From positions 12,276,001 through 12,340,000 of the forward strand of contig NC_135830.1 in assembly GCF_964213995.1 (NCBI RefSeq): a stretch of DNA of 64,000 nucleotides, given 5' to 3'. The position numbers were made by a program, and so were the translations under genes. The notes under the pieces were generated by a model. It did not search any database, was not told the origin of the DNA, and saw only the letters and a list, made by a program, of their open reading frames with translations. Numbering within the stretch: position 1 is the stretch's first letter; every line of letters starts with the position of its first letter. Below are positions 1 through 56,973 of this stretch, piece by piece. The DNA comes from Mustelus asterias. Taxonomy: Eukaryota.

Positions 1-73
1 GAGCCCATCATGAGGATACCAGCTCCCCATGGCAGATCCCGCCAATTGGAGCCAATTTATTTTTTAAAGTCTC

Positions 74-3000
74 TCATAGCAGGAAGGGCTTGGCTCTTAG
101 TGAGCAATTAATGGAGGGGTCACCTGTGGTTGTCCCCCTCCAAAACAAGTATATTGCTTTGGATAGTGTGGAGGAGGATGACTCTCCAGGGGTAAGCCAC
201 AGTGACCAGGTCACTGGCACAGAATCAGGTTCTGTGGCCCGGAAAGGAAAGAGAGGAATTCGGAGAGCAATAGTGGTGGGGGATGCGTCGGTTCGAGGCA
301 CGGATAGGCGATTCTGTGGGTGCGAACGGGACTCCAGGATGGTAGTCTGCCTACCTGGTGTTGGGGTACTGGACGTCTCCGAGCGGATAGGAGGCATATT
401 AAAAGGGGAAGATAAAGAAACGGATGTCGTTGTACACATTGGTGCAAATGACGTAGATAGGAAGAGCAGGGGGATCGTACGAGAGCAATTCAGGGAGTTG
501 GGAAATAGGCGAAAAGGTAGGGCCTCCAGGGTAGCAATAGCTGGGCTGCTCCCAATGTCTCGTGCCAGTGAGGCTAGGAATAGGGAGTTAATACAATTGA
601 ACGCTTGGCTAAAGGACTGGTCCAGGAGGGAGGGCTTCATTTTCCTGGATCATTGGGAAGTTTTCAAGAGAGGATGGCACCTGTACAAGAAGGATGGGTC
701 ACAACTAAATTGGAAGGGCACGAATATCCTGGCTGGGAGTTTTGCTCGTGCAGTTCGGGTGGGTTTAAACTAATATGGCAGGGGGGTGGGGATCAAAAAA
801 TTAGGTCTACAAGTGTAGAGGCTGGGGACGAGCTTGGGGCCAGGACAAGGCTGGCAAAGAAGAAGAGCACTCTGGGGGAGGATGAACTCACTGGGCCTGG
901 AGGTCTGGAGTGCCTCTACTTCAAAGCAAGGAGCGTAGCAGGTAAGACAGACGAACTTAGGGCCTTCATGCTTACGAAGAATTTGGATGTAGTTGCGGTG
1001 ACAGAGACTTGGTTGAAAGAGAGACAGGACTGGCAGCTGAATATTCCGGGGTACAAGTGTTTTAGGCGAGACAGAGGAGGGGCCAAAAGAGGTGGGGGAG
1101 TAGCAGTATTCGTTAGAGAACATATTACAGCGGTGCAGAGGGAGGACAATTCAGAGGGGTCGTGTAACGAGTCACTGTGGGTGGAGCTCAGAAACAGGAA
1201 GGGCGCAGTCACTATGTTGGGGATATACTACAGGCCCTCCAACAGCCCAAGGGAAGTGGAAGAACGGATATGTCAGGAGATACTGGATAGGTGCAGGAAA
1301 AAATAGGGTTGTTGCAGTGGGAGACTTCAATTTCCCTGGTATAGAATGGAAATCGCTTAGAGCTGGGACTCTCAATGGGGAGGAATTTGTAAAATGCGTA
1401 CAGGAAGGTTCTTTGGAACAATATGTAGATAGCCCGACTAGAGAGGGGGCTATACTGGACCTAGTACTGGGGAATGAGCCCGGTCAGGTCTTCAAAGTTT
1501 CAGTAGGAGAACATGTGGCAAATAGTGACCACAATTCTGTTAGCTTTAGGATAGCGATGGAAAAGGATGAGTGGTGTCCCAAGGGTAAGGTGGTGAATTG
1601 GGGGAAGGCTAACTTTAGTGGGATTAGGCAGAAATTGGCAGTTGTTGATTGGGAGAGGCTGTTTGAGGGTAAATCCACAACTGGCATGTGGGAGTCTTTT
1701 AAGGAACAGTTGTTAGGGCTGCAGGACAGGCATGTGCCTGTAAAAAAGAAGGATAGGAAGGGTAGGATTCGAGAACCGTGGATAAACAGGGAAATTGAGG
1801 GACTGGTCAAAAAGAAAAGGGAGGCGTACGTTAGGTCCAGGCAGTTAAAAACGGAGGGAGCTCTGGAGGAATACAAAGAAAGTCGGAAAGAACTCAAAAG
1901 AGGAATTAGAAGGGCAAAAAGGGGTCACGAAATGTTCTTGGCAGACAGGATTAAGGAGAATCCCAAGGCATTTTATTCATACGTTAGGAACAAAAGGGGT
2001 GTCAGGGAAAAAATCAGACCTCTCAGGGACAAAAGTGGGGAATTATGCTCAGAGCCCAAAGAAGTAGGGGAGATCCTAAATGAATACTTTGCGTTGGTAT
2101 TCACAAAGGAGAGGGATGTGTTGACTGGGAGTGTCTCGGAGGGGAGTGTTGAACCATTAGAGAAAATCTCCACTACAAGGGAGGAAGTGTTAGGTTTTTT
2201 AGAGAATATAAAGACTGACAAGTCCCCAGGGCCTGATGGAATCTATCCAAGGCTGCTCAGGGAGACGAGAGATAAAATCGCTGGGCCTCTGACGCAAATC
2301 TTTATCTCATCACTGGACACAGGTGAGGTCCCAGAGGATTGGAGGATAGCTAATGTGGTCCCGTTATTTAAGAAGGGTAGGAAGGATAACCCGGGTAATT
2401 ATAGGCCGGTGAGCTTGACGGCCATGGTAGGGAAGTTGTTGGAGAGAATTCTTAGAGATAGGATGTATGCACATTTAGAAAGGAATAAACTCATTAACGA
2501 TAGTCAGCATGGTTTTGTGAGAAGGAGGTCATGCCTCACTAACCTGGTGGAGTTTTTTGAAGAAGTGACTAGAATGGTTGACGAGGGAAGGGCCGTGGAT
2601 GTCGTCTCTATGGACTTTAGTAAAGCGTTTGACAAAGTCCCTCACGGTAGGCTGGTGCAAAAGGTTGGATCTCATGGGATAAAGGGGGAGGTGGCTAGAT
2701 GGGTGGAGAACTGGCTTGTCACAGAAGACAGAGGGTGGGAGTGGAAGGGTCTTTTACCGGCTGGAGGCCTGTGACGAGTGGTGTTCCGCAGGGCTCTGTA
2801 TTGGGACCTCTGCTGTTTGTGATTTACATAAACGATCTGGAAGAAGATGTAACTGGGGTGATCAGTAAGTTTGCGGACGACACGAAATTGGCTGGAATTG
2901 GCGATAGTGAGGAACATTGTCAGAGACTACAGATGGATATAGATCGGCTGGAAATTTGGGCAAAGAAATGGCAGATGGAGTTCAAACCAGATCAATGCGA

Positions 3001-3778
3001 AGTGATGCATTTTGGTAGAGCTAATGTAGGGGGGAGCAATGCGATAAATGGCAGAATCATAAAGGGTGTAGATACGCAGAGGGACCTGGGTGTGCAATTC
3101 CACAGATCCTTGAAGGTGACGTCACAGGTGGAGAAGGTGGTGAAAAAGGCATATGGCATGCTAGCCTTTATAGGACGGGGTATAGAGTATAAAGGTTGGG
3201 ATCTGATGTTGCAGATGCATAGAACGTTGGTTCGGCCGCATTTGGAATACTGCATCCAGTTCTGGTCGCCACACTACCAGAAGGACTTGGAGGCTTTAGA
3301 GAGAGTGCAGAGGAGGTTTACCAGGATGTTGCCTGGTTTGGAGGGGCTTAGTTATGAGGAGAGATTGAGTAAACTGGGGTTGTTTTCACTGGAAAGACGG
3401 AGGATGAGGGGAGACCTAATAGAGGTGTATAAAATTATGAAAGACATAGATAGGGTGAACGGTGGGAAGCTTTTTCCCAGGCCGGTGGTGACGTTCACGA
3501 GGGGTCATAGGTTCAAGGTGAGAGGCGGGGGGGAGGTTTAACATGGATATCAGAAGGACATATTTTACACAGAGGGTGGTGGGGGCCTGGAATGCGCTGC
3601 CAGGCAAGGTGGTGGAGGTGGGCACACTGGGAACGTTTAAGACTTATCTCGATAGCCACATGAACGGAGTGGGTATGGAGGGATACAAAAGAATGGTCTA
3701 GTTTGGACCAGGGAGCGGCGGGGGCTTGGAGGGCCGAAGGGCCTCTTCCTGTACCGTATTGTTCTTTGTTCTTTGTTG
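74..3778 (+). mobile_element. CR1-clade LINE, 5'-truncated in ORF1; ORF1 esterase part (90-773) and frameshifted ORF2 (APE endonuclease + RT)
   Basis: ORF1 has SGNH/GDSL-like motifs (IVVGDASVRG, VVHIGAND). ORF2 pieces carry VAVTETWL, GDFNFP, SDHN, GVPQGSVLGP and FADD. The 3' tail is (GTTCTTT)n. Confidence 0.95.
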
Positions 3779-21851: not shown

Positions 21852-24769
21852 TCAAGCTATCCCACTCCCTACCATCCTGGTGTGCTCCATGTGCCTATCC
21901 AATAACCGCTTAAATGTTCCTAAAGTGTCTGACTCCACTATCACTGCAGGCAGTCCATTCCACACCCCAACCACTCTCTGCGTGAAGAACCTACCTCTGA
22001 TATCCTTCCTATATCTCCCACCATGAACCCTATAGTTATGCCCCCTTGTAATAGTTCCATCCACCCGAGGAAATAGTCTTTGAACGTTCACTCGATCTAT
22101 CCCCTTCATCATTTTATAAACCTCTATTAAGTCTCCCCTCAATCTCCTCCGCTCCAGAGAGAACAGCCCCAGCTCCCTCAACCTTTCCTCATAAGACCGA
22201 CGCTCCAAACCAGGCAGCATCCTGGTAAATCTCCTCTGCACTCTTTCCAGCGCTTCCACATCCTTCTTATAGTGAGGTGACCAGAACTGCACGCAATATT
22301 CCAAATGCGGTCTCACCAAGGTCCTGTACAGTTGCAGCATAACCCCACGGCTCTTAAACTCCAACCCCCTGTTAATAAAAGCTAACACACTATATGCCTT
22401 CTTCACAGCTCTATCCACTTGAGTGGCAACCTTTAGAGATCTGTGGATATGGACCCCAAGATCTCTCTGTTCCTCCACAGTCTTCAGAACCCTACCTTTG
22501 ACCCTGTAATCCACATTTAAATTAGTCCTACCAAAATGAATCACCTCACATTTATCAGGGTTAAACTCCATTTGCCATTTTTCAGCCCAGCTTTGCATCC
22601 TATCTATGTCTCTTTGCAGCCTACAACAGCCCTCCACCTCATCCACTACTCCACCAATCTTGGTGTCATCAGCAAATTTACTGATCCACCCTTCAGCCCC
22701 CTCCTCTAAGTCATTAATAAAAATCACAAAGAGCAGAGGACCAAGCACCGATCCCTGCGGCACTCCTCTAGCAACCTGCCTCCAGTCCGAAAATTTTCCA
22801 TCCACCACCACCCTCTGTCTTCGATCAGATAGCCAGTTACCTATCCAATCGGCCAACTTTCCCTCTATCCCACACCTCCTTACTTTCATCATAAGCCGAC
22901 CATGGGGGACCTTATCAAACGCCTTACTAAAATCCATGTATATGACATCAACCGCCCTACCTTCATCAACACACCTAGTTACCTCCTCAAAAAATTCTAT
23001 CAAATTTGTGAGGCACGATTTGCCCTTCACAAATCCGTGCTGACTATCCCGGATTAATCCGCATCTTTCTAAATGGTCGTAAATCCCATCCCTAAGGACC
23101 TTTTCCATCAATTTACCAACCACCGAAGTCAGACTAACCGGTCTATAATTACCAGGGTCATTTCTATTCCCTTTCTTAAACAGAGGAACAACATTTGCCA
23201 CTCTCCAGTCCTCTGGCACCATCCCCGTGGACAGCGAGGACCCAAAGATCAAAGCCAAAGGCTCTGCAATCTCATCCCTCGCCTCCCAAAGAATCCTAGG
23301 ATACATTTCATCAGGCCCAGGGGACTTATCGACCTTCAGTTTATTCAAAACTGCCAAGACATCCTCCCTCCGAACATCTATTTCCTCCAGCCTATTAGCC
23401 TGTAACACCTTCTCTTCCTGAAAAACATGGCCCCTCTCCTTGGTGAACACTGAAGAAAAGTATTCATTCATCACCTCGTCTATCTCTACTGATTCCATAC
23501 ACAAGTTCCCACCACTGTCCTTGACCGGCCCTAACCTCGCCCTGGTCATTCTTTTATTCCTCACATAAGAGTAAAAAGCCTTGGGGTTTTCCTTGATCCG
23601 ACCCGCCAAGGACTTCTCATGTCCCCTCCTAGCTCTCCTGAGCCCCTTTTTCAGCTCATTCCTTGCTAACTTGTAACCCTCAATCGAGCCATCTGAACCT
23701 TGTTTCCTCATCCCTACATAAGCTTCCCTCTTCCTTTTCACAAGACATTCCACCTCTTTTGTGAACCACGGTTCCCTCACTCGGCCATTTCCTCCCTGCC
23801 TGACAGGGACATACCTATCAAGGACACCCAGTATTTGTTCCTTGAAAAAGTTCCACTTTTCATCAGTGCCTTTCCCTGACAGTTTCTGTTCCCATCTTAT
23901 GCCCCCTAATTCTTGCCTAATCGCATCATAATTACCTCTCCCCCAATTGTAAGCCTTGCCCTGCCGTCCGGCCCTATCCCTCTCCATTGCAATAACAAAA
24001 GACACCGAATTGTGGTCACTATCTCCAAAGTTCTCTCCCACAACCAAATCTAACACTTGGCCTGGTTCATTTCCCAGTACCAAATCCAATGTGGCCTCAC
24101 CCCTTGTCGGCCTATCCACATATTGTGTCAGGAAACCCTCCTGCACACACTGCACAAAAAGTGCCCCATCCAAACTATTCGACCTACAAAGGTTCCAATC
24201 AATATTTGGAAAGTTAAAGTCCCCCATGACAACTACCCTGTGACCCCCACACGTATCCATAATCTGCTTTGCAATTTCTTCCTCCACATCTCTATTACTA
24301 TTTGGGGGCCTATAGTAAACTCCTAGCAATGTGACCGCTCCTTTCCTGTTTCTAACTGCAGCCCATATTACCTCAGTGTGCATATTCCCCTCAAAGTGCT
24401 TTTCCGCAGCCGTTAAACTATCCTTGATTAACAATGCTACTCCTCCACCTCTTTTACCAGCTTCCCTACACTTACTGAAACATCTATACCCCGGAACGTC
24501 CAACAACCATTCCTGTCCTTGTTCTACCCACGTCTCCGTAATGGCCACAACATCGTAGTCCCAAGTAGCAATCCACGCCCCAAGTTCATCCACCTTGTTC
24601 CGGATGCTCCTTGCATTGAAGTAGACACACTTCAACCCATCTTCCTGTCTACCTGTACCCACCCTTGACCTTGATACCTTCCCCAATATCTCACCACCCT
24701 CAACACTGACTTCCGGACTACAACTCCTTTTCCCACTCCCCTGACAAATTAGTGTCAATCCCCCTGAAG
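21852..24769 (-). CDS. CR1 ORF2p: APE endonuclease + reverse transcriptase (no AUG before the first EN motif)
   Basis: Uninterrupted frame with CVYFNARS, AITETW, GDFNFP, SDHN, GVPQGSVLGP and FADD. It lies in the -1 frame relative to ORF1; the start is approximate. Confidence 0.93.
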
Positions 24770-25675
24770 AGCCGTAGCAAATTTCCCTCCCAGGATATTG
24801 GTGCCCCTCTGGTTCAGGTGCACCCCGTCCTGTTTGTAGAGGTCCCACCTTCCCCAGAACGTGTTCCAATTATCCACGTATCTGAAACCCTCCCTCCTGC
24901 ACCATCCCTGCAACCACATGTTTAAGTGCACTCTCTCCCTGTTCCTCAACTCGCTATCACGTGGCACCGGTAGCGTACCAGAGATGACCACATGTTTTGT
25001 CTTTGCTCTCAGCTTCCAGCCCAGCTCCCGAAATTCCTGTTTTAAATCCCCGTCCCTTCTCTTACCTATGTCGTTGGTACCAATGTGTACCACGACTTGT
25101 GACTGTTTCCCCTCCCCCTTAAGAATCCGGAAAACACGGTCCGAGACGTCACGGACCCTGGCATCCGCTAGGCAACAAACCATCCTCGAGTCTCTTTTGC
25201 TGCCACAGAACCTCCTATCTATCCCTCTAACTAATGAGTCCCCAATAACTATTGCCCTCCCGCTCTCCTCCTTACCCTCCTGAGCCACAGGGACGGACTC
25301 AGTGCTGGAGATCCTCTCACTGCGGCTCACCACTGGTATGTCGTCCCCCTCAACCGTATCCAAAGCGGAATACTTGTTGCTAAGGGGAACGACCACAGGG
25401 GATCCCTGCACCGACTGCTTCTTCCCAGCCCCTCTCACCGTCACCGATCTATTTTCATTCCTCGGAGTAACTGTATCCCTGAAGCTTCTGTCTATGGCCA
25501 TCTCTGCATCCCTAATGATCCTAAGTTCCTCCAACTCCAGCTCCAGTTCCCTTACACGGTTTTGGAGGAGCTGCAGATGGATGCACTTCTCACAGGTATA
25601 ATCAGCAGGGACACTGACGTCGTCCCTCACCTCGAACATAGTGCAAGAGGAACATTGCACTGCCTTCACACCCAT
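24755..25675 (-). CDS. CR1 ORF1p: Cys zinc finger, leucine-zipper coiled coil, SGNH/GDSL esterase-like domain
   Basis: CSSC..CEKC; LQLLQNRVRELELELEEL; IVIGDSLVRG; VVHIGTND; DGVHLN. Confidence 0.9.
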   Translation of the reverse strand: MGVKAVQCSSCTMFEVRDDVSVPADYTCEKCIHLQLLQNRVRELELELEELRIIRDAEMAIDRSFRDTVTPRNENRSVTVRGAGKKQSVQGSPVVVPLSNKYSALDTVEGDDIPVVSRSERISSTESVPVAQEGKEESGRAIVIGDSLVRGIDRRFCGSKRDSRMVCCLADARVRDVSDRVFRILKGEGKQSQVVVHIGTNDIGKRRDGDLKQEFRELGWKLRAKTKHVVISGTLPVPRDSELRNRERVHLNMWLQGWCRREGFRYVDNWNTFWGRWDLYKQDGVHLNQRGTNILGGKFATALQGD

Positions 25676-26758
25676 CCCCTCTCGATACCTTGCCAGTACC
25701 AGGTAGAAACAGCAAAAAATGAATTAACTCACCCCTGCTTGCCCAAGCCCTGTGAGCCAAAGCCCTACAGCTTTCACTCTGCCTCCTGCTCACTCTGCTG
25801 CCCGCTAACGACGCTGCCCGCTCAAAAGTGTGGCCTACTTTTAAACCCTCCAAAAACCTTCCCAGACTCCTGCTGGGCCCACTTCCTGTTTTAAAAAAAA
25901 CCTCCGATTTCTTTACACAAATTTAACTTAAAATAAATAAATAAATGTAGTGAACAAACCAACTGCCTTCTCCTCAGCCTGGTCCTGTGGAACAATGAGG
26001 GTTCATATAATAGATGAGGAGGAATTATTTCCATGGTCAACAGGTACGAGAGGATACTAATTAAAGATAACTAGTAAATAGAAATGCTGGGGAAATATAT
26101 GGTTATGTTCAAAGCGTGTCTTTATGATCTTCAAAACGCTGCCTCAGGGATTAGTGGAAACACATACAGTAATAAATGGCTGGTTTCCGATTTGAAATGG
26201 ACAAATGTGCAAGTCCATGGACATAGAATATGTAACTGGTCTGAAGGGACAGCTCTTGCAGACTAGAAGTACAAGCAACTTGGCCGAATGACTTCCTTCT
26301 GTGTCGATTTATCCAGTGATTCCATAAATCATATCCAATCCTAACTCCGGCATAAACAATCGTTCCTGTAGCTATCTCTCGTCCAAAATCCTACAAGCAT
26401 CCCCATAATAACAGCATGGGAGCACATTCAACATTTACACTGGTGTGCTTCAGGAAGACGATTCTCACAATTTGTTTATGTGACGTTAATTATGGACAAT
26501 AAATGATAGTCTTCCTATAGTCGCCGAAAGAGAAAAAATAAAACAAGCAACAAAAAGAATAAAAAGGTGCCTCATTCACGTTTTCCTTTTGGATTTGTGT
26601 TTTGTTCGACCTCCCATTTCTCCTCTATTTCTGGCCTGCTTCGTCTCTGCCAGTTTCTCTCATTCACCATTTTCGTTTCTTTGCATCTCTCATCAAGTTC
26701 AATGGCAGCTTTCATGTCCGAATGTTATATGTTCCGAACAAGTGGCGTGAGGAGAGAT

Positions 26759-32100: not shown

Positions 32101-32830
32101 TATGCTCCCTAACCAGCATTGCTACTCCCCCACCTCTCCTCGCCCCTCCTCTGTCTCGCCTAAAACACTTATACCCCGGAATATTCAGCTGCCAGTCCTG
32201 TCCTTCTTTTAACCAAGTCTCCGTTACTGCAACCACATCCAAGTTCCGGCAAGCATTAAGGCTCTAAGCTCGTCTGTCTTGGCCGTGACGCTCCGTGCAT
32301 TGAAGCAGATGCACTCCAGACCTCCAGGCCCACTGAGGTCATCCTCCCCCAGAATGCCCTTCCTCTTAGATAGCCTTGTCTTGGCCCCAAACTCGTCCCA
32401 AGCCTCTATGCTTATTGACCTATTGTTCTGATCCCCACCCCCCTGCCACATTAGTTTAAACCCACCCGAACCGCACTCGCAAAACTTCCAGCTAGGATAT
32501 TCGTACCCCTCCAGTTTAGGTGCAACCCGTCCTTCTTGTACAGGTGCCACCCTCTCTTGAAGACTTCCCAGTGATCCACGAATTCGAAACCCTCCCTCCT
32601 GCAACAGTCCTTTATCCACGCGTTCAGCTGTGCAGTCTCTGTTCTTAGCCTCACTAGCTTGTGACATTGGGAGTAGTCCAGAGATCGCTACCCTAGAAGC
32701 CTTGCTTTTTAGCCTACCACACAACTCCCTGAATTGCTCTCGCAGGATCCCCCTGCTCTTTCTGCTGACGTCATTTGCACCAATGTGGACAATGACGTCT
32801 GTCTGGTTACCCGCCTTTTTTAGGATGCTT
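29102..32830 (-). mobile_element. CR1 LINE (ORF1 3' part + frameshifted ORF2) with a nested SINE
   Basis: EN/RT fragments in the ORF track; TSD CCTGA (29097-29101 and 32831-32835); the empty site is seen in the paralog near 53700. Confidence 0.93.
29535..29864 (-). mobile_element. HE1-like V-SINE nested in CR1
   Basis: Complete SINE with TSD TCCATA (29529-34 and 29865-70). Confidence 0.9.
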
Positions 32831-34622: not shown

Positions 34623-34661
34623 AGTTTCTGTACGGGGCCTGTATCAGTTTGTATCACGGTG
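34623..34661 (-). promoter_or_regulatory. 23-RSS
   Basis: Minus strand CACCGTG + 23 nt + ACAGAAACT. Confidence 0.9.
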
Positions 34662-36264
34662 AATGTTCAGCGCACAATAATACATGCCACTGTCACTCAG
34701 CTGTGCATCTGTCAGAGTTAAACTGTAGAAACGATTCGATGCTTGTAGTGTTGAAGATAATCGGCCTCCCACACGCCCAGCTTTCTCTGTTTCTCCTTCC
34801 GAATTCCTTCTGGTTAAAAAAAACAGCTCCTCCCCCGGTTTTTGTCGGTACCAGAGCAGGTCATAGCGGCGGCTGTCTGTGGAAAACGAACAGGGCAACA
34901 CCATGCGTTCTTCCTCCAAACATGATACCGATGATGCAAGCTGTTTAACAGCATCAGAATAACACAGTCCTTCAAATACACAATCAACAAAAAATAAATA
35001 GGTGTTTTGATATGGGGCACCATTAAAAAATCTTTCATCTCCTCATCATAATAGGCGGTGGCCCTTTGCTATTATCGCGAGACAATTAATGGAGAAATTC
35101 AGCCAGGAATCCCACCGCGGCAGGATTTGAATACAGTAAAAAAAATCTGGAATTAACAATCTACAATTAAACTATTGTCGATTGTCATATGAACCCATCT
35201 GGTTCACAAATGTTCTTTAGGGAAGGATATCTGCCGTTCTGAAATGGTCTGGCCTATATGTGACTCCAGACAATTGTGGTTGTCTCCCTGCTGCCCTCGG
35301 GCAACGAAGGATGAGCAGGAAGTGCTGGCCAGCCAGCGACGCCCAGTCGCTTCAGGAAAAGAATAAGAATGGAAGCCACGAATGAATGAAAGAAATGAGT
35401 GATTCAGCAAACACATATATCACGTATTGACAGATGACAGATTTATCATTTCCCCCAACCGCTACTCTTTCTGCATAACCTGGAAAATATTTTCCTTCAA
35501 ATATTCATCCTGTTTCCTCTAAGCAGTTACCATGAAATCTGCTTGGACCAACATTTCAAGAAGAAAATTCTTCCTTTGATTGATTTTCCCATTATCTTCA
35601 AACAACCTTCCCTGGTTACCCAGCTTTCTGTCTCTTGAAACAATTTACTCTGTCAAACAGTTCAGGAATATCAACATCGCTTTCAGGTCTCCTGTTACCT
35701 GCCTGTGTTCTGAGAAAGGGGTTCCCGTTACCCAGTGTGCCCTGAAACCTAAGGGCCCTGAACACAGAGACCGTTCCAATAAATTTCCCCCTTACCCTGC
35801 CCAAGACATTGCCGCCGTTCATTAGATTTGATTCCCATAACCGAACACAATACATTAAAAAAGGCCTGAGTATGGATACAGAAATATTTGACTTAATATC
35901 ACTTTACATGTACACTATTCCTATTAATAGAGGTAAGAGTTGGAAATGTTTCCACAAACTTTCAAATTTGCTCTGACGCTTTCATAGCTTTGAATATATA
36001 CAATCCAATGTTTCGCTCTCTTCTCTGCCCCCTTTCAGCTACAACAAACTATTGTAAATCGGAATAATCAAAGTGAATGTTCAAGAAAAAACATACATCC
36101 GTCCATCCTCTGTTATTCCCTTAATCGCCCCCAGCCTCACGTCTTTTTCTACATCCAACCATCCCTCGATATTATTTTTGCAAACCTGCGTTCCAATGCT
36201 AGTTAAATGACTCACCGAGCTTCAGGAAAAGAATAAGAATGGAAGCCGTGAAATCCTGTGACAT
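34662..36264 (-). CDS. Intact TCR V-alpha/delta gene segment (leader 36216-36264, V exon 34662-34969)
   Basis: Leader MSQDFTASILILFLKL-G|GTGAGT. Acceptor TTGAAG, then GLCYSDAVKQLASSVSCLEEERMVLPCSFSTDSRRYDLLWYRQKPGEELFFLTRRNSEGETEKAGRVGGRLSSTLQASNRFYSLTLTDAQLSDSGMYYCALNI. Cys-Trp-Cys are present and the RSS follows. Confidence 0.9.
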
Positions 36265-44500: not shown

Positions 44501-44910
44501 AGTATAAGCACTCCAGACCTCCAGGCCCAGTGAGGTCATCCTCCCCCAGAGTGCTCTTCTTCTTTGCCAGCCTTGTCCCAGTCCCAAGCTCGTCCCCAGC
44601 CTCGACACTTGTAGACCTAATATTTTGATCCCCACCCCCCCTGCCATACTAGTTTAAACCCCCCCGAACTGCACTAGCAAAACTCCCAGCCAGGATATTC
44701 GTGCCCTTCCAACTTAGTTGTGACCCGTCCTTCTTGTACAGGTGCCATCCTCTCCTGAAATCTTCCCATTGATCTAGGAAAATGAAGCCCTCCCTCCTGG
44801 ACCCGTCCTTTAGCCAAGTATTCAATTGTACTAACTCCCTATTCTTAGCCTCACTGGCACGAAGCATTGGGAGCAGCCCAGAGATGGCCACCCTGGAGGC
44901 CCTACTTTTT
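41508..44910 (-). mobile_element. CR1 LINE (ORF1 3' end 44649-44910, ORF2 to 41586) within the J-to-supporting-V intron
   Basis: 827-aa ORF 41586-44069 with EN/RT motifs; tail (AACAAAG)n on plus; interrupted at 44069-44206 by an antisense CR1 3' tail. Confidence 0.95.
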
Positions 44911-50495: not shown

Positions 50496-50944
50496 ATGCA
50501 GATATTCAGAATCTGTATTATGTTTGGGATAATTATTGTCGGTAAGGATGATTCCAATCATGTTCCATTCAGATTGGCGTTATATTTTATATTAACACGC
50601 GATTTTTTCTTGCTCCCAAACACATGACAGATCAGAGTGATGGAGATTCAGTTACTCAGTCCCAGTCTTCAGAGAGCGGGAGAGAAGGGGAAACCGTGAC
50701 TATAAAATGTACCTATCACACTACAGAAGAAATGTATTATGTCTATTGGTACCTGCAGCTACCAGCGAAGGAGCCCGAGTTTGTTGTGTGGAGACGGTCT
50801 TGGGATGTTGTGGAATGGAAAGGCTCGGCGTTTGGAAACCGTTTTGCTTCAGACCTCCAGCTGTCAGACTCCACCGCAAGTTTAACCATCATGGACTTGC
50901 AGACGACCAACGCTGCCATTTATTACTGCGCTCTCTCTGAGACT
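50496..50944 (+). CDS. Intact TCR V-alpha/delta gene segment (leader 50496-50541, V exon 50631-50944)
   Basis: Leader MQIFRICIMFGIIIV-|GTAAGG, 89-nt intron, then DQSDGDSVTQSQSSESGREGETVTIKCTYHTTEEMYYVYWYLQLPAKEPEFVVWRRSWDVVEWKGSAFGNRFASDLQLSDSTASLTIMDLQTTNAAIYYCALSET. Confidence 0.95.
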
Positions 50945-50983
50945 CACAGTGATTGAAAAGAGTACCGACCCTGTACAAAAACT
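50945..50983 (+). promoter_or_regulatory. 23-RSS
   Basis: CACAGTG + 23 nt + ACAAAAACT. Confidence 0.95.
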
Positions 50984-56011: not shown

Positions 56012-56373
56012 ATCATAACGACACGCTTTGATATATCATACATTTCTCCAGCATTTCTATTTATCGATCATCTTAAATCAGTATCATCTCATTGTCGTCC
56101 CTGTTTCCCATGAAAATAATTTTTACTCATTTGACTCTTTCACAAATTTGGATACCTGATTTAAATTTCAGCTAAAGTTTCTTTTTTTGTCAAGGGAACC
56201 AATTCCGTTTCTCTACTCACTCCGAGTAACTGATGTCTATAATCCTTGACGGCATTTTGCCAGAACAAAAGTATGTTTTTGAATCACTATATGAACGAGG
56301 GATGCTTTTTTTCAAGAGTCGCTGGATTGAAGATGCCTTTGCGAACCTCCCCGGCTTCGTAGTGGTTTGACAA

Positions 56374-56411
56374 GGGTTTTGTACGGGTCACACCCGGTTT
56401 GAGGCACCGTG
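56374..56411 (-). promoter_or_regulatory. RSS (22-nt spacer)
   Basis: Minus strand CACGGTG + 22 nt + ACAAAACCC. Confidence 0.85.
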
Positions 56412-56973
56412 ATCCTCAATCCACTGAAATAGAGGGCACTGTCTTTTGTCTCCACTGCAGAAATTGACAAAGGGAAAATCTTATATAGACTGAAATGCCA
56501 AGCATCGAATTTTCCTTCGGCACACTCGGCTTCCTTGCGTGTGGTGTTATCCCAGTGCAATAATGGCTGGAGTGGCTGGTTCGGGTAAAGCCGGTACCAG
56601 TAGCGATCCAGATCAACAGAAATGGAGTTGTAATTACGGCTCAATTCCAGGTTAGTTCCTTCGGCTACCTTCAACTGACGTTGAATCTGTGTTACCGAAC
56701 TCCCTTGGAATATACCTGCAATATGCAAATAGTATGCAAAACATTCAGGTAACCCCCTGATTGATGACAAGCATCCCCCTCTCCCCTCTTTCAAAATGAG
56801 GAAAATCAATCACAATCTAACTATCACATTTGGATTATTTACACCAGAGGAAAGAATACATTTCAGTATTTAGATAATATAGGGGGAAGAATGACAAGTC
56901 ATATTAAGAAGTGTTTCACATGTTCCAATTTACCGAATAGAAATGAGATCACGAGAAGCTTAACTGGTGGCAT
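56412..56973 (-). CDS. TCR V segment, open frame but lacking both canonical cysteines (leader 56934-56973, V exon 56412-56715)
   Basis: Leader MPPVKLLVISFLF-G|GTAAAT, then GIFQGSSVTQIQRQLKVAEGTNLELSRNYNSISVDLDRYWYRLYPNQPLQPLLHWDNTTRKEAECAEGKFDAWHFSLYKIFPLSISAVETKDSALYFSGLR, with CGT and AGT at the two Cys positions. Confidence 0.85.

Follow-up and report, generated by a model that had tools for sequence, protein, structure and literature searches.

We investigated the junction between the two open reading frames (ORFs) of CR1 long interspersed elements (LINEs) in a 64,000-nt stretch of the genome of the shark Mustelus asterias (contig NC_135830.1, positions 12,276,001 to 12,340,000; hereafter, the window). 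A conserved U_UUA_AAC heptamer located immediately upstream of the ORF1 stop codon is probably a programmed −1 ribosomal frameshift site that would yield an ORF1-ORF2 fusion, as an earlier note on this DNA had proposed. The sequence shows the reading phase, a Leu and an Asn that each keep a single codon throughout the 11 lineages compared, and the lack of an AUG codon shared by all lineages; from these we infer slippage, synthesis of a fusion and a function for a downstream G-tract.

The junction in the first CR1 copy of the window (copy 1) reads GGG TTTAAAC TAA TATGGCA GGGGGGTGGGG at positions 761–800 of the forward strand. Here, the ORF1 frame closes with G-L-N-stop, TTTAAAC occupies the X_XXY_YYZ phase at 764–770 right before the stop, and ORF2 lies in the −1 frame, all in agreement with the earlier note. 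This −1 frame reads G-F-K-L-I-W-Q-G-G-G, followed by a linker and the endonuclease; the previously reported ORF2 start, G-F-K-L, is correct as a reading of the −1 frame, but the slip product would be G-L-N-L-I-W. Copy 1 is a broken relic with both ORFs disrupted, its ORF2 being split into three reading-frame pieces and running on beyond position 3541 in a different frame. TTTAAAC occurs 23 times in the window compared with 11.2 ± 3.7 in shuffled sequences, an excess of little weight, since four of the sites are scored once per strand and the majority of matches lie outside junctions. The real evidence is the phase, position and cross-lineage conservation of the heptamer, not its count in the window.

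Under the proposed mechanism, most ribosomes would stop at UAA or UAG, releasing the ORF1 protein, and a minority would slip back by one base, with tRNA-Leu shifting from UUA to UUU and tRNA-Asn from AAC to AAA. For the slipped ribosomes, the following codon would be CUA, and they would proceed across a linker of varying length (35–65 residues) to the endonuclease and reverse transcriptase, giving, in the subfamily of copy 1, the fusion junction G-L-N-L-I-W-Q-G-G. The fusion would comprise about 1,270 residues (306 + ~968 in subfamily B, see below), and the G-tract would pause the ribosome, either as a protein-binding site or as the seed of a G-quadruplex.

Conservation of the heptamer

Five CR1 subfamilies (A–E) were sampled from the M. 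asterias genome, with 30 loci each. The A and B loci were first fetched with junction-spanning queries; subfamilies C, D and E were drawn from a blind sample of 200 kb and from a third family of the window, and their loci were then fetched with queries that stop before the heptamer. TTTAAACTAR was found within 50 nt of the anchor in 28 of the A and 27 of the B loci, counts that are partly circular because the queries included the junction, and in 17 of the C, 17 of the D and 28 of the E loci. In each of the five subfamilies, the majority of junctions read TTTAAAC, and both junctions encountered in the blind sample were TTTAAAC-TAR. The C and D copies without the exact sequence show scattered substitutions, indels or insertions, and we read these losses, in the older sets, as decay after insertion. 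In B, the youngest subfamily, 764 of 769 matches to a pattern admitting all synonymous Leu, Asn and stop codons have the exact form, which, because B is young, shows only that variants have not spread. A second potential slippery heptamer, G_GGU_UUA, which overlaps the first in copy 1, is confined to A, C and D, being missing in B, E and the bird-type loci described below. As a side observation, two subfamily-A junctions (L223 and L228) are followed by a 3' end that differs from the one seen in the remaining A copies and might belong to recombinant elements.

Outside this genome, a metagenome scan returned 24 related loci with 26–56% identity, of which nine span the junction and 15 do not reach it. 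We term these loci bird-type on account of the likeness between their ORF1 ends and a swallow protein; those at the junction have about 30% protein identity. TTTAAAC is present in eight of the nine: six have TTTAAAC TAG, one has TTTAAAC after an upstream frame break, and one has TTTAAAC followed by AAG; the ninth is degraded and lacks the heptamer. At the protein level, 37 of 48 homologs reach the C-terminus, and 34 of these 37 end in L-N. The named homologs come from sharks and rays, except for one bacterial entry, and L-N ends are also found in turtle, snake and swallow proteins. The bacterial entry (P0008), a shark-type CR1 ORF1 with 70% identity that is recorded under Pseudomonas aeruginosa as an SGNH hydrolase from a contig of 4 kb, is probably host contamination.

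Inspection by eye of the vertebrate consensus sequences in the supplement of PMC13343379, covering the first 400 letters of each row and yielding matches only, with no denominator, placed 17 of 23 TTTAAACTA matches at junction-like positions between esterase and ORF2. We take the name codes of the respective rows to stand for alligator, crocodile, bowfin, bullfrog, chimaera, coelacanth, rays, sharks and one ray-finned fish. Two rows of this supplement, SquAca_CR1-18 and SquAca_CR1-3, carry TTTAAACTA in their 5' region as well, upstream of the apparent ORF1 start.

We compared codon usage across 11 lineages (five shark majority sequences and six bird-type loci), which, being related, do not constitute 11 independent tests. 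Among the last 110 ORF1 codons, there are nine invariant degenerate residues, seven of which use 2–5 codons; a single codon is kept only by the terminal Leu (TTA, 11/11) and Asn (AAC, 11/11), against a background in which TTA accounts for 7–19% of Leu codons and AAC for 29–57% of Asn codons. Synonymous variants, the commonness of which would have spoken against frameshifting according to the earlier note, are therefore not common, either across lineages or within subfamily B. In the five shark subfamilies alone, one codon is kept in six of 31 such columns, and in none of the eight other Leu columns. The base just before TTA is T in all 11 lineages although the residue encoded by that codon varies. 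Similarly, among 71 L-N proteins, the residue preceding L-N lacks a U-ending codon in only one, versus 34, 20 and 5 at the three positions before it, a contrast that should be taken as a pattern and not as a P value because the proteins are related.

Could these bases be retained because the ORF1 protein needs its C-terminal Leu-Asn, or as a signal in RNA or DNA that has no part in translation, ORF2 being expressed from an RNA of its own that is spliced or started internally? Conservation of L-N at the protein level would agree with this, but constraint on the protein cannot explain why the synonymous codons TTA and AAC are fixed. The site is also palindromic, GTTTAAAC, in several copies; however, the palindrome is missing in B, E and most bird-type loci, with G at base −7 in only four of the 11 lineages. 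Furthermore, proteins of a sister clade end in Q-G-N, S-K-N or F-L-N, each fitting another slippery heptamer. Such non-translational constraint fits the data least, and we consider it very improbable.

Entry into ORF2

The X_XXY_YYZ heptamer lies in zero-frame phase inside the overlap of the two ORFs, and the −1 frame is open from the heptamer for 968 codons in L202 and L205 and for 831 codons in L094. In E and in the bird-type locus L096, a stop codon lying two codons 5' of the heptamer closes the −1 frame, such that continuous passage into ORF2 would be possible only at the heptamer itself. No AUG position is common to all lineages. Among copies open as far as the first endonuclease motif, a Met precedes this motif in 3 of 22 in A, 0 of 27 in B, 0 of 3 in C, 0 of 6 in D and 11 of 11 in E, where it is codon 19. 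In copy 1, the first Met is codon 69 of the −1 frame (968–970), 3' of the motif, in which K stands in place of the N of most relatives, and one bird-type locus has no Met in 31 codons. The earlier claim that the first Met follows the endonuclease motif in most copies holds for copy 1 and usually for four of the five subfamilies, but not for E, four bird-type loci and the window copy with its heptamer at 32454, all of which have an early AUG.

These data bear on termination-reinitiation, whereby translation would end at the ORF1 stop and ORF2 would be started anew nearby, at UAAUG or at a non-AUG codon, the conserved bases providing the context of both termination and restart. Both the UAAUG coupling in SART1 (PMC3894237) and AUG-independent initiation of L1 ORF2 (PMC5009743) are precedents for such a process. 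In CR1, the stop is always adjacent to the heptamer and always TAR, and UAAUG is present in the 32454 copy as well as in some dogfish and catshark consensus rows. However, codon 4, where UAAUG would form, is ATG in only one of 17 D copies and in none of the 100 A, B, C and E copies with the heptamer, so that a conserved AUG overlapping the ORF1 stop, as in SART1, was not found. In the shark majority sequences codon 4 is ATA, ATT or GTG, which might support a non-AUG restart, but GTT stands there in 11 of the 17 D copies, and the bird-type loci have GGT, GAC, GCT or GAT. Variation of this codon in the window (ATA, ATG, GTA, ATT) had been described previously and is real, except that ATT belongs to a junction with TTGACAC instead of TTTAAAC. 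UGGGA, the calicivirus-type motif for termination-reinitiation, is missing within 100 nt upstream in all three bird-type loci tested and has no position common to all sharks. Reinitiation also leaves the fixed TTA, AAC and preceding U, all 5' of the stop, without explanation, and we view it as quite unlikely.

Natural in-frame fusions were considered as potential support for frameshifting and were not counted: only two matches were obtained among 207 longer-protein candidates, and these could be indel copies or annotation choices. The two, a stingray gene model and an unnamed protein, join the esterase to the endonuclease at G-G-F-K-L. The stingray model (P0209), named hydroxyacid oxidase 2 isoform X1, joins a CR1 esterase to the endonuclease at the junction. 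Three presumed-RNA runs gave no joint at the junction; they consist of contigs only and are uninformative.

A G-tract downstream of the heptamer

Counting from the last base of the heptamer, G is invariant at +11 to +14 and at +18 and +19 in an ungapped alignment of all 11 lineages. Two of these positions, +11 and +14, are wobble positions, and GGG makes up just 32–41% of the Gly codons in these ORF2s. RNA folding, which the earlier note had put forward as a check, identified no conserved structure in this region: the consensus energy is 0 with no pairs, no hairpin is predicted 5–9 nt downstream, with pseudoknots not modelled, and the junction has no match in Rfam. Single folds gave z scores above −2 for seven of eight elements, and in the remaining one, L088 (z −2.3), the G-tract is unpaired. 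The G4Hunter-type scores of 1.24–1.80 fall within the 98.0–99.9th percentile in eight of eight elements but are exceeded elsewhere in seven of the eight, and only two G-runs are conserved.

The signal located 11–14 nt downstream is a sequence without predicted structure, as in protein-stimulated frameshifting of the arterivirus or cardiovirus type. Because no RNA structure is predicted there, the G-tract would most likely be a protein-binding site or a G-quadruplex seed, and it is a likely pause signal. A bound protein or a quadruplex seems preferable to a hairpin also because the 11-nt spacing matches that in PRRSV, the virus behind porcine reproductive and respiratory syndrome, discussed below.

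In a variant of this scenario, the slip is real and the G-tract acts through base pairing with the 3' tail of the same element, some 3 kb downstream. The bird-type tract can form eight contiguous pairs (seven Watson-Crick) with the tail motif, with 0–2 better sites and 0–24 of 500 shuffles as good for the best-pairing tail, but the bird tails and the junctions belong to different elements, and a single tail among the three pairs clearly worse. In the shark subfamilies C, D and E, the tail ranks among the best partners of the tract (0–3 better sites); nevertheless, 97–394 of 500 shuffles pair as well in sharks, and pairs within the same family are not preferred. Conversely, 10–127 other sites outpair the G-tract for the tail, the motif of which is occupied in its own 3' stem. 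On this evidence, pairing with the tail appears unlikely. Positions +14 to +21 of L088, L089, L094, L095 and L096 are complementary to a pyrimidine run in the CR1 3' hairpin (tails L105, L110 and L111), with seven Watson-Crick pairs for two of the three tails. Another candidate partner, which ranked in the top five in A, B and D copies, is a C-rich segment that encodes Pro some 650 nt upstream; it was rejected on account of this position and because its codons explain it.

We tentatively extend the frameshift reading to a broader model, the likelihood of which we judge to be well short of even. In this model, the CR1 reverse transcriptase would be produced as a Gag-Pol-like ORF1-ORF2 fusion through a −1 frameshift triggered by the unstructured G-tract at +11 and not by a hairpin. 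The tract would be read by a bound protein, either the ORF1 protein or a host G-run binder, or would act as a quadruplex, forming a regulated switch that extends from sharks to birds, and a sister clade would have swapped the heptamer for G_GGA_AAC or A_AAA_AAC.

The putative swap concerns esterase ORF1 proteins with other ends. Of 101 distant representatives reaching the C-terminus, 40 end in L-N, eight in G-N, all after Gln, and a few in K-N, E-N or S-N; another 23 differ strongly in length, in either direction, and the others end otherwise. A quick tree of 86 proteins groups all eight Q-G-N proteins in one supported clade, which also includes S-K-N and F-L-N ends; 12 further proteins form a clade of their own in which no such end occurs. 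Q-G-N and S-K-N ends, known from proteins alone, are compatible with G_GGA_AAC and A_AAA_AAC, respectively; a viral scan for DNA of the Q-G-N clade returned one unrelated hydrolase only. An esterase ORF1 clade ending in Q-G-N, S-K-N or F-F-x, all of which would fit other slippery sequences, includes P0073, P0076, P0083, P0089, P0091, P0093, P0100, P0124, P0189, P0097, P0146 and P0158.

Observations at odds with frameshifting

Several observations weigh against frameshifting at the heptamer, in addition to the partial circularity of the A and B counts, the relatedness of the 11 lineages, the missing denominator for the supplement rows and the lack of a predicted hairpin. The exact 10-mer is missing in 13 of 30 C copies and 13 of 30 D copies. 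Conservation across vertebrates, which the earlier note had suggested examining, is seen in the bird-type loci and in the junction-like supplement rows, but an L-N end is present in just 40 of the 101 distant representatives. Early AUG codons are present in E (11/11) and A (3/22), with a Met also at codon 5 in L088, L089, L094 and L092 and at codon 23 in L095, and the 32454 copy has an early AUG in its UAAUG stop-start. Moreover, lack of an AUG does not by itself force a frameshift because human L1 ORF2 starts independently of AUG (PMC5009743).

The only copy in the window with both frames open, at 21852–25723 on the minus strand (322 + 1,005 codons, stop to stop), lacks the TTTAAAC heptamer, and one of the two private changes in its heptamer creates an earlier ORF1 stop. 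A heptamer-less source lineage was considered as an explanation and rejected: the TTGACAC variant occurs in just three places in the genome, all within duplicated blocks; the divergence of this copy (19 private changes in 3,930 columns) resembles that of its sisters (13–16); and close pairs of changes occur in the sisters too.

CR1 copies of the window and their surroundings

Searching with tblastn revealed four ORF1/ORF2 junctions in the window (Table 1). The heptamer and G-tract at 32454–32460 and 44652–44658 on the minus strand are as originally described, and the extra G in the tract of the latter copy breaks its −1 frame.

Table 1. Features of copy 1 and of the other CR1 junctions in the window
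Feature	Position	Strand	Remark
3' part of CR1 ORF1, SGNH/GDSL esterase domain	3..773	+	5' part broken
Second X_XXY_YYZ heptamer, G_GGU_UUA	761..767	+	one codon 5' of U_UUA_AAC, overlapping
Candidate slippery heptamer U_UUA_AAC (TTTAAAC)	764..770	+	ORF1 phase; invariant in 11/11 lineages
ORF2 (linker, AP endonuclease, reverse transcriptase)	764..3541	+	putatively entered in −1 frame
ORF1 stop directly 3' of heptamer	771..773	+	TAA in 4, TAG in 7 of 11 lineages
G-tract, candidate frameshift stimulator	781..791	+	from +11 after heptamer
First endonuclease motif, C-L-Y-F-K-A-R-S	911..934	+
3' tail	3731..3777	+	hairpin and short terminal repeats
Fourth junction, TTGACAC	24752..24758	−	subfamily-B copy; two private heptamer substitutions
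Heptamer TTTAAAC, second broken copy	32454..32460	−	then TAA TG (stop-start overlap) and G-tract
Heptamer TTTAAAC, third copy	44652..44658	−	then TAG TA and G-tract one base longer

By sequence, the element is an esterase-type vertebrate CR1 LINE, with an SGNH esterase in ORF1 and an AP endonuclease and reverse transcriptase in ORF2. In Pfam searches, Lipase_GDSL_2 was detected above the cut-off in the 24758–25723 copy (E 2.8e-12) and below the curated cut-off in copy 1 (E 6.5e-06), and a PDB search matched the ORF1 esterase to 4c1b (E 6.5e-27). Exo_endo_phos and RVT_1 were found in 21855–24869, and copy 1 carries the same ORF in pieces. CR1 LINEs end in a 3' hairpin and short tandem repeats in place of a poly(A) tail, and both are present here. 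The junctions in the window also look, by eye, like rows named CR1 in the supplement of PMC13343379. The host genome is 3.68 Gb in size, and the nearest entries to its CR1 ORF1 proteins are those of sharks and rays.

The window seems to be part of an antigen-receptor locus. Three ORFs on the minus strand (34644–35042, 50552–50956 and 56312–56809) resemble T-cell receptor V segments by eye, with WYRQ- and YYC-type motifs. The region is repeated as near-identical duplicated blocks (C71:11.05–11.07 Mb, C71:12.28–12.30 Mb, C111 and C138), in which several elements are 100% identical at matching offsets.

Relation to known systems and implications

PMC5009743 counts U_UUA_AAC among the heptamers most prone to shifting. 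The coronavirus infectious bronchitis virus (IBV) has the identical heptamer in the same phase and its polymerase in the downstream frame. Unlike CR1, for which no structure is predicted and the zero-frame stop follows immediately, IBV employs a structured stimulator 5–9 nt downstream (PMC5009743). Given that no hairpin was found, the spacing in CR1 recalls protein-stimulated arterivirus frameshifting, for which longer spacers have been described (PMC5009743). PRRSV likewise has a short unstructured signal 11 nt 3' of its shift site; however, that signal is the C-rich CCCANCUCC, on which nsp1beta acts together with a poly(C)-binding protein, and the shift occurs at another site and is mainly −2 (PMC5009743); the likeness is geometric only.

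Among non-LTR retrotransposons, TRE5-A and TRE3-A of Dictyostelium, which are APE-type elements, share with CR1 overlapping ORFs, and −1 frameshifting is stated to be required for their ORF2 (PMC5911963), but they belong to another clade and have a different type of ORF1. SART1 and L1, similarly to CR1, express a LINE ORF2 from a bicistronic RNA, and UAAUG is found in a minority of CR1 copies; however, they produce a separate ORF2 protein, and in CR1 it is the upstream heptamer that is conserved and not the AUG. Canonical vertebrate CR1 elements with a type IV esterase share the esterase ORF1 and the APE and reverse transcriptase ORF2 with the elements studied here (PMC13343379, PMC4120745). 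The word frameshift does not occur in the main texts of PMC13343379 and PMC4120745, and CR1 is not mentioned in the available portion of the recoding review PMC5009743. Full-text searches found no description of frameshifting at the CR1 junction, older CR1 papers and most subscription journals being outside their reach. For some invertebrate elements of the CR1 clade, 2A ribosome skipping has been stated.

The mode of LINE ORF2 translation has been called an open question (PMC3894237, PMC5009743), and in most vertebrates it is the CR1 group that dominates among retrotransposons (PMC13343379). Natural G-quadruplex frameshift stimulators were anticipated, with none known as of 2016 (PMC5009743). 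If the frameshift reading is correct, the CR1 enzyme would be an ORF1-ORF2 fusion, annotations that start ORF2 at the first AUG would cut off the endonuclease, and the G-tract would represent a new natural frameshift stimulator.

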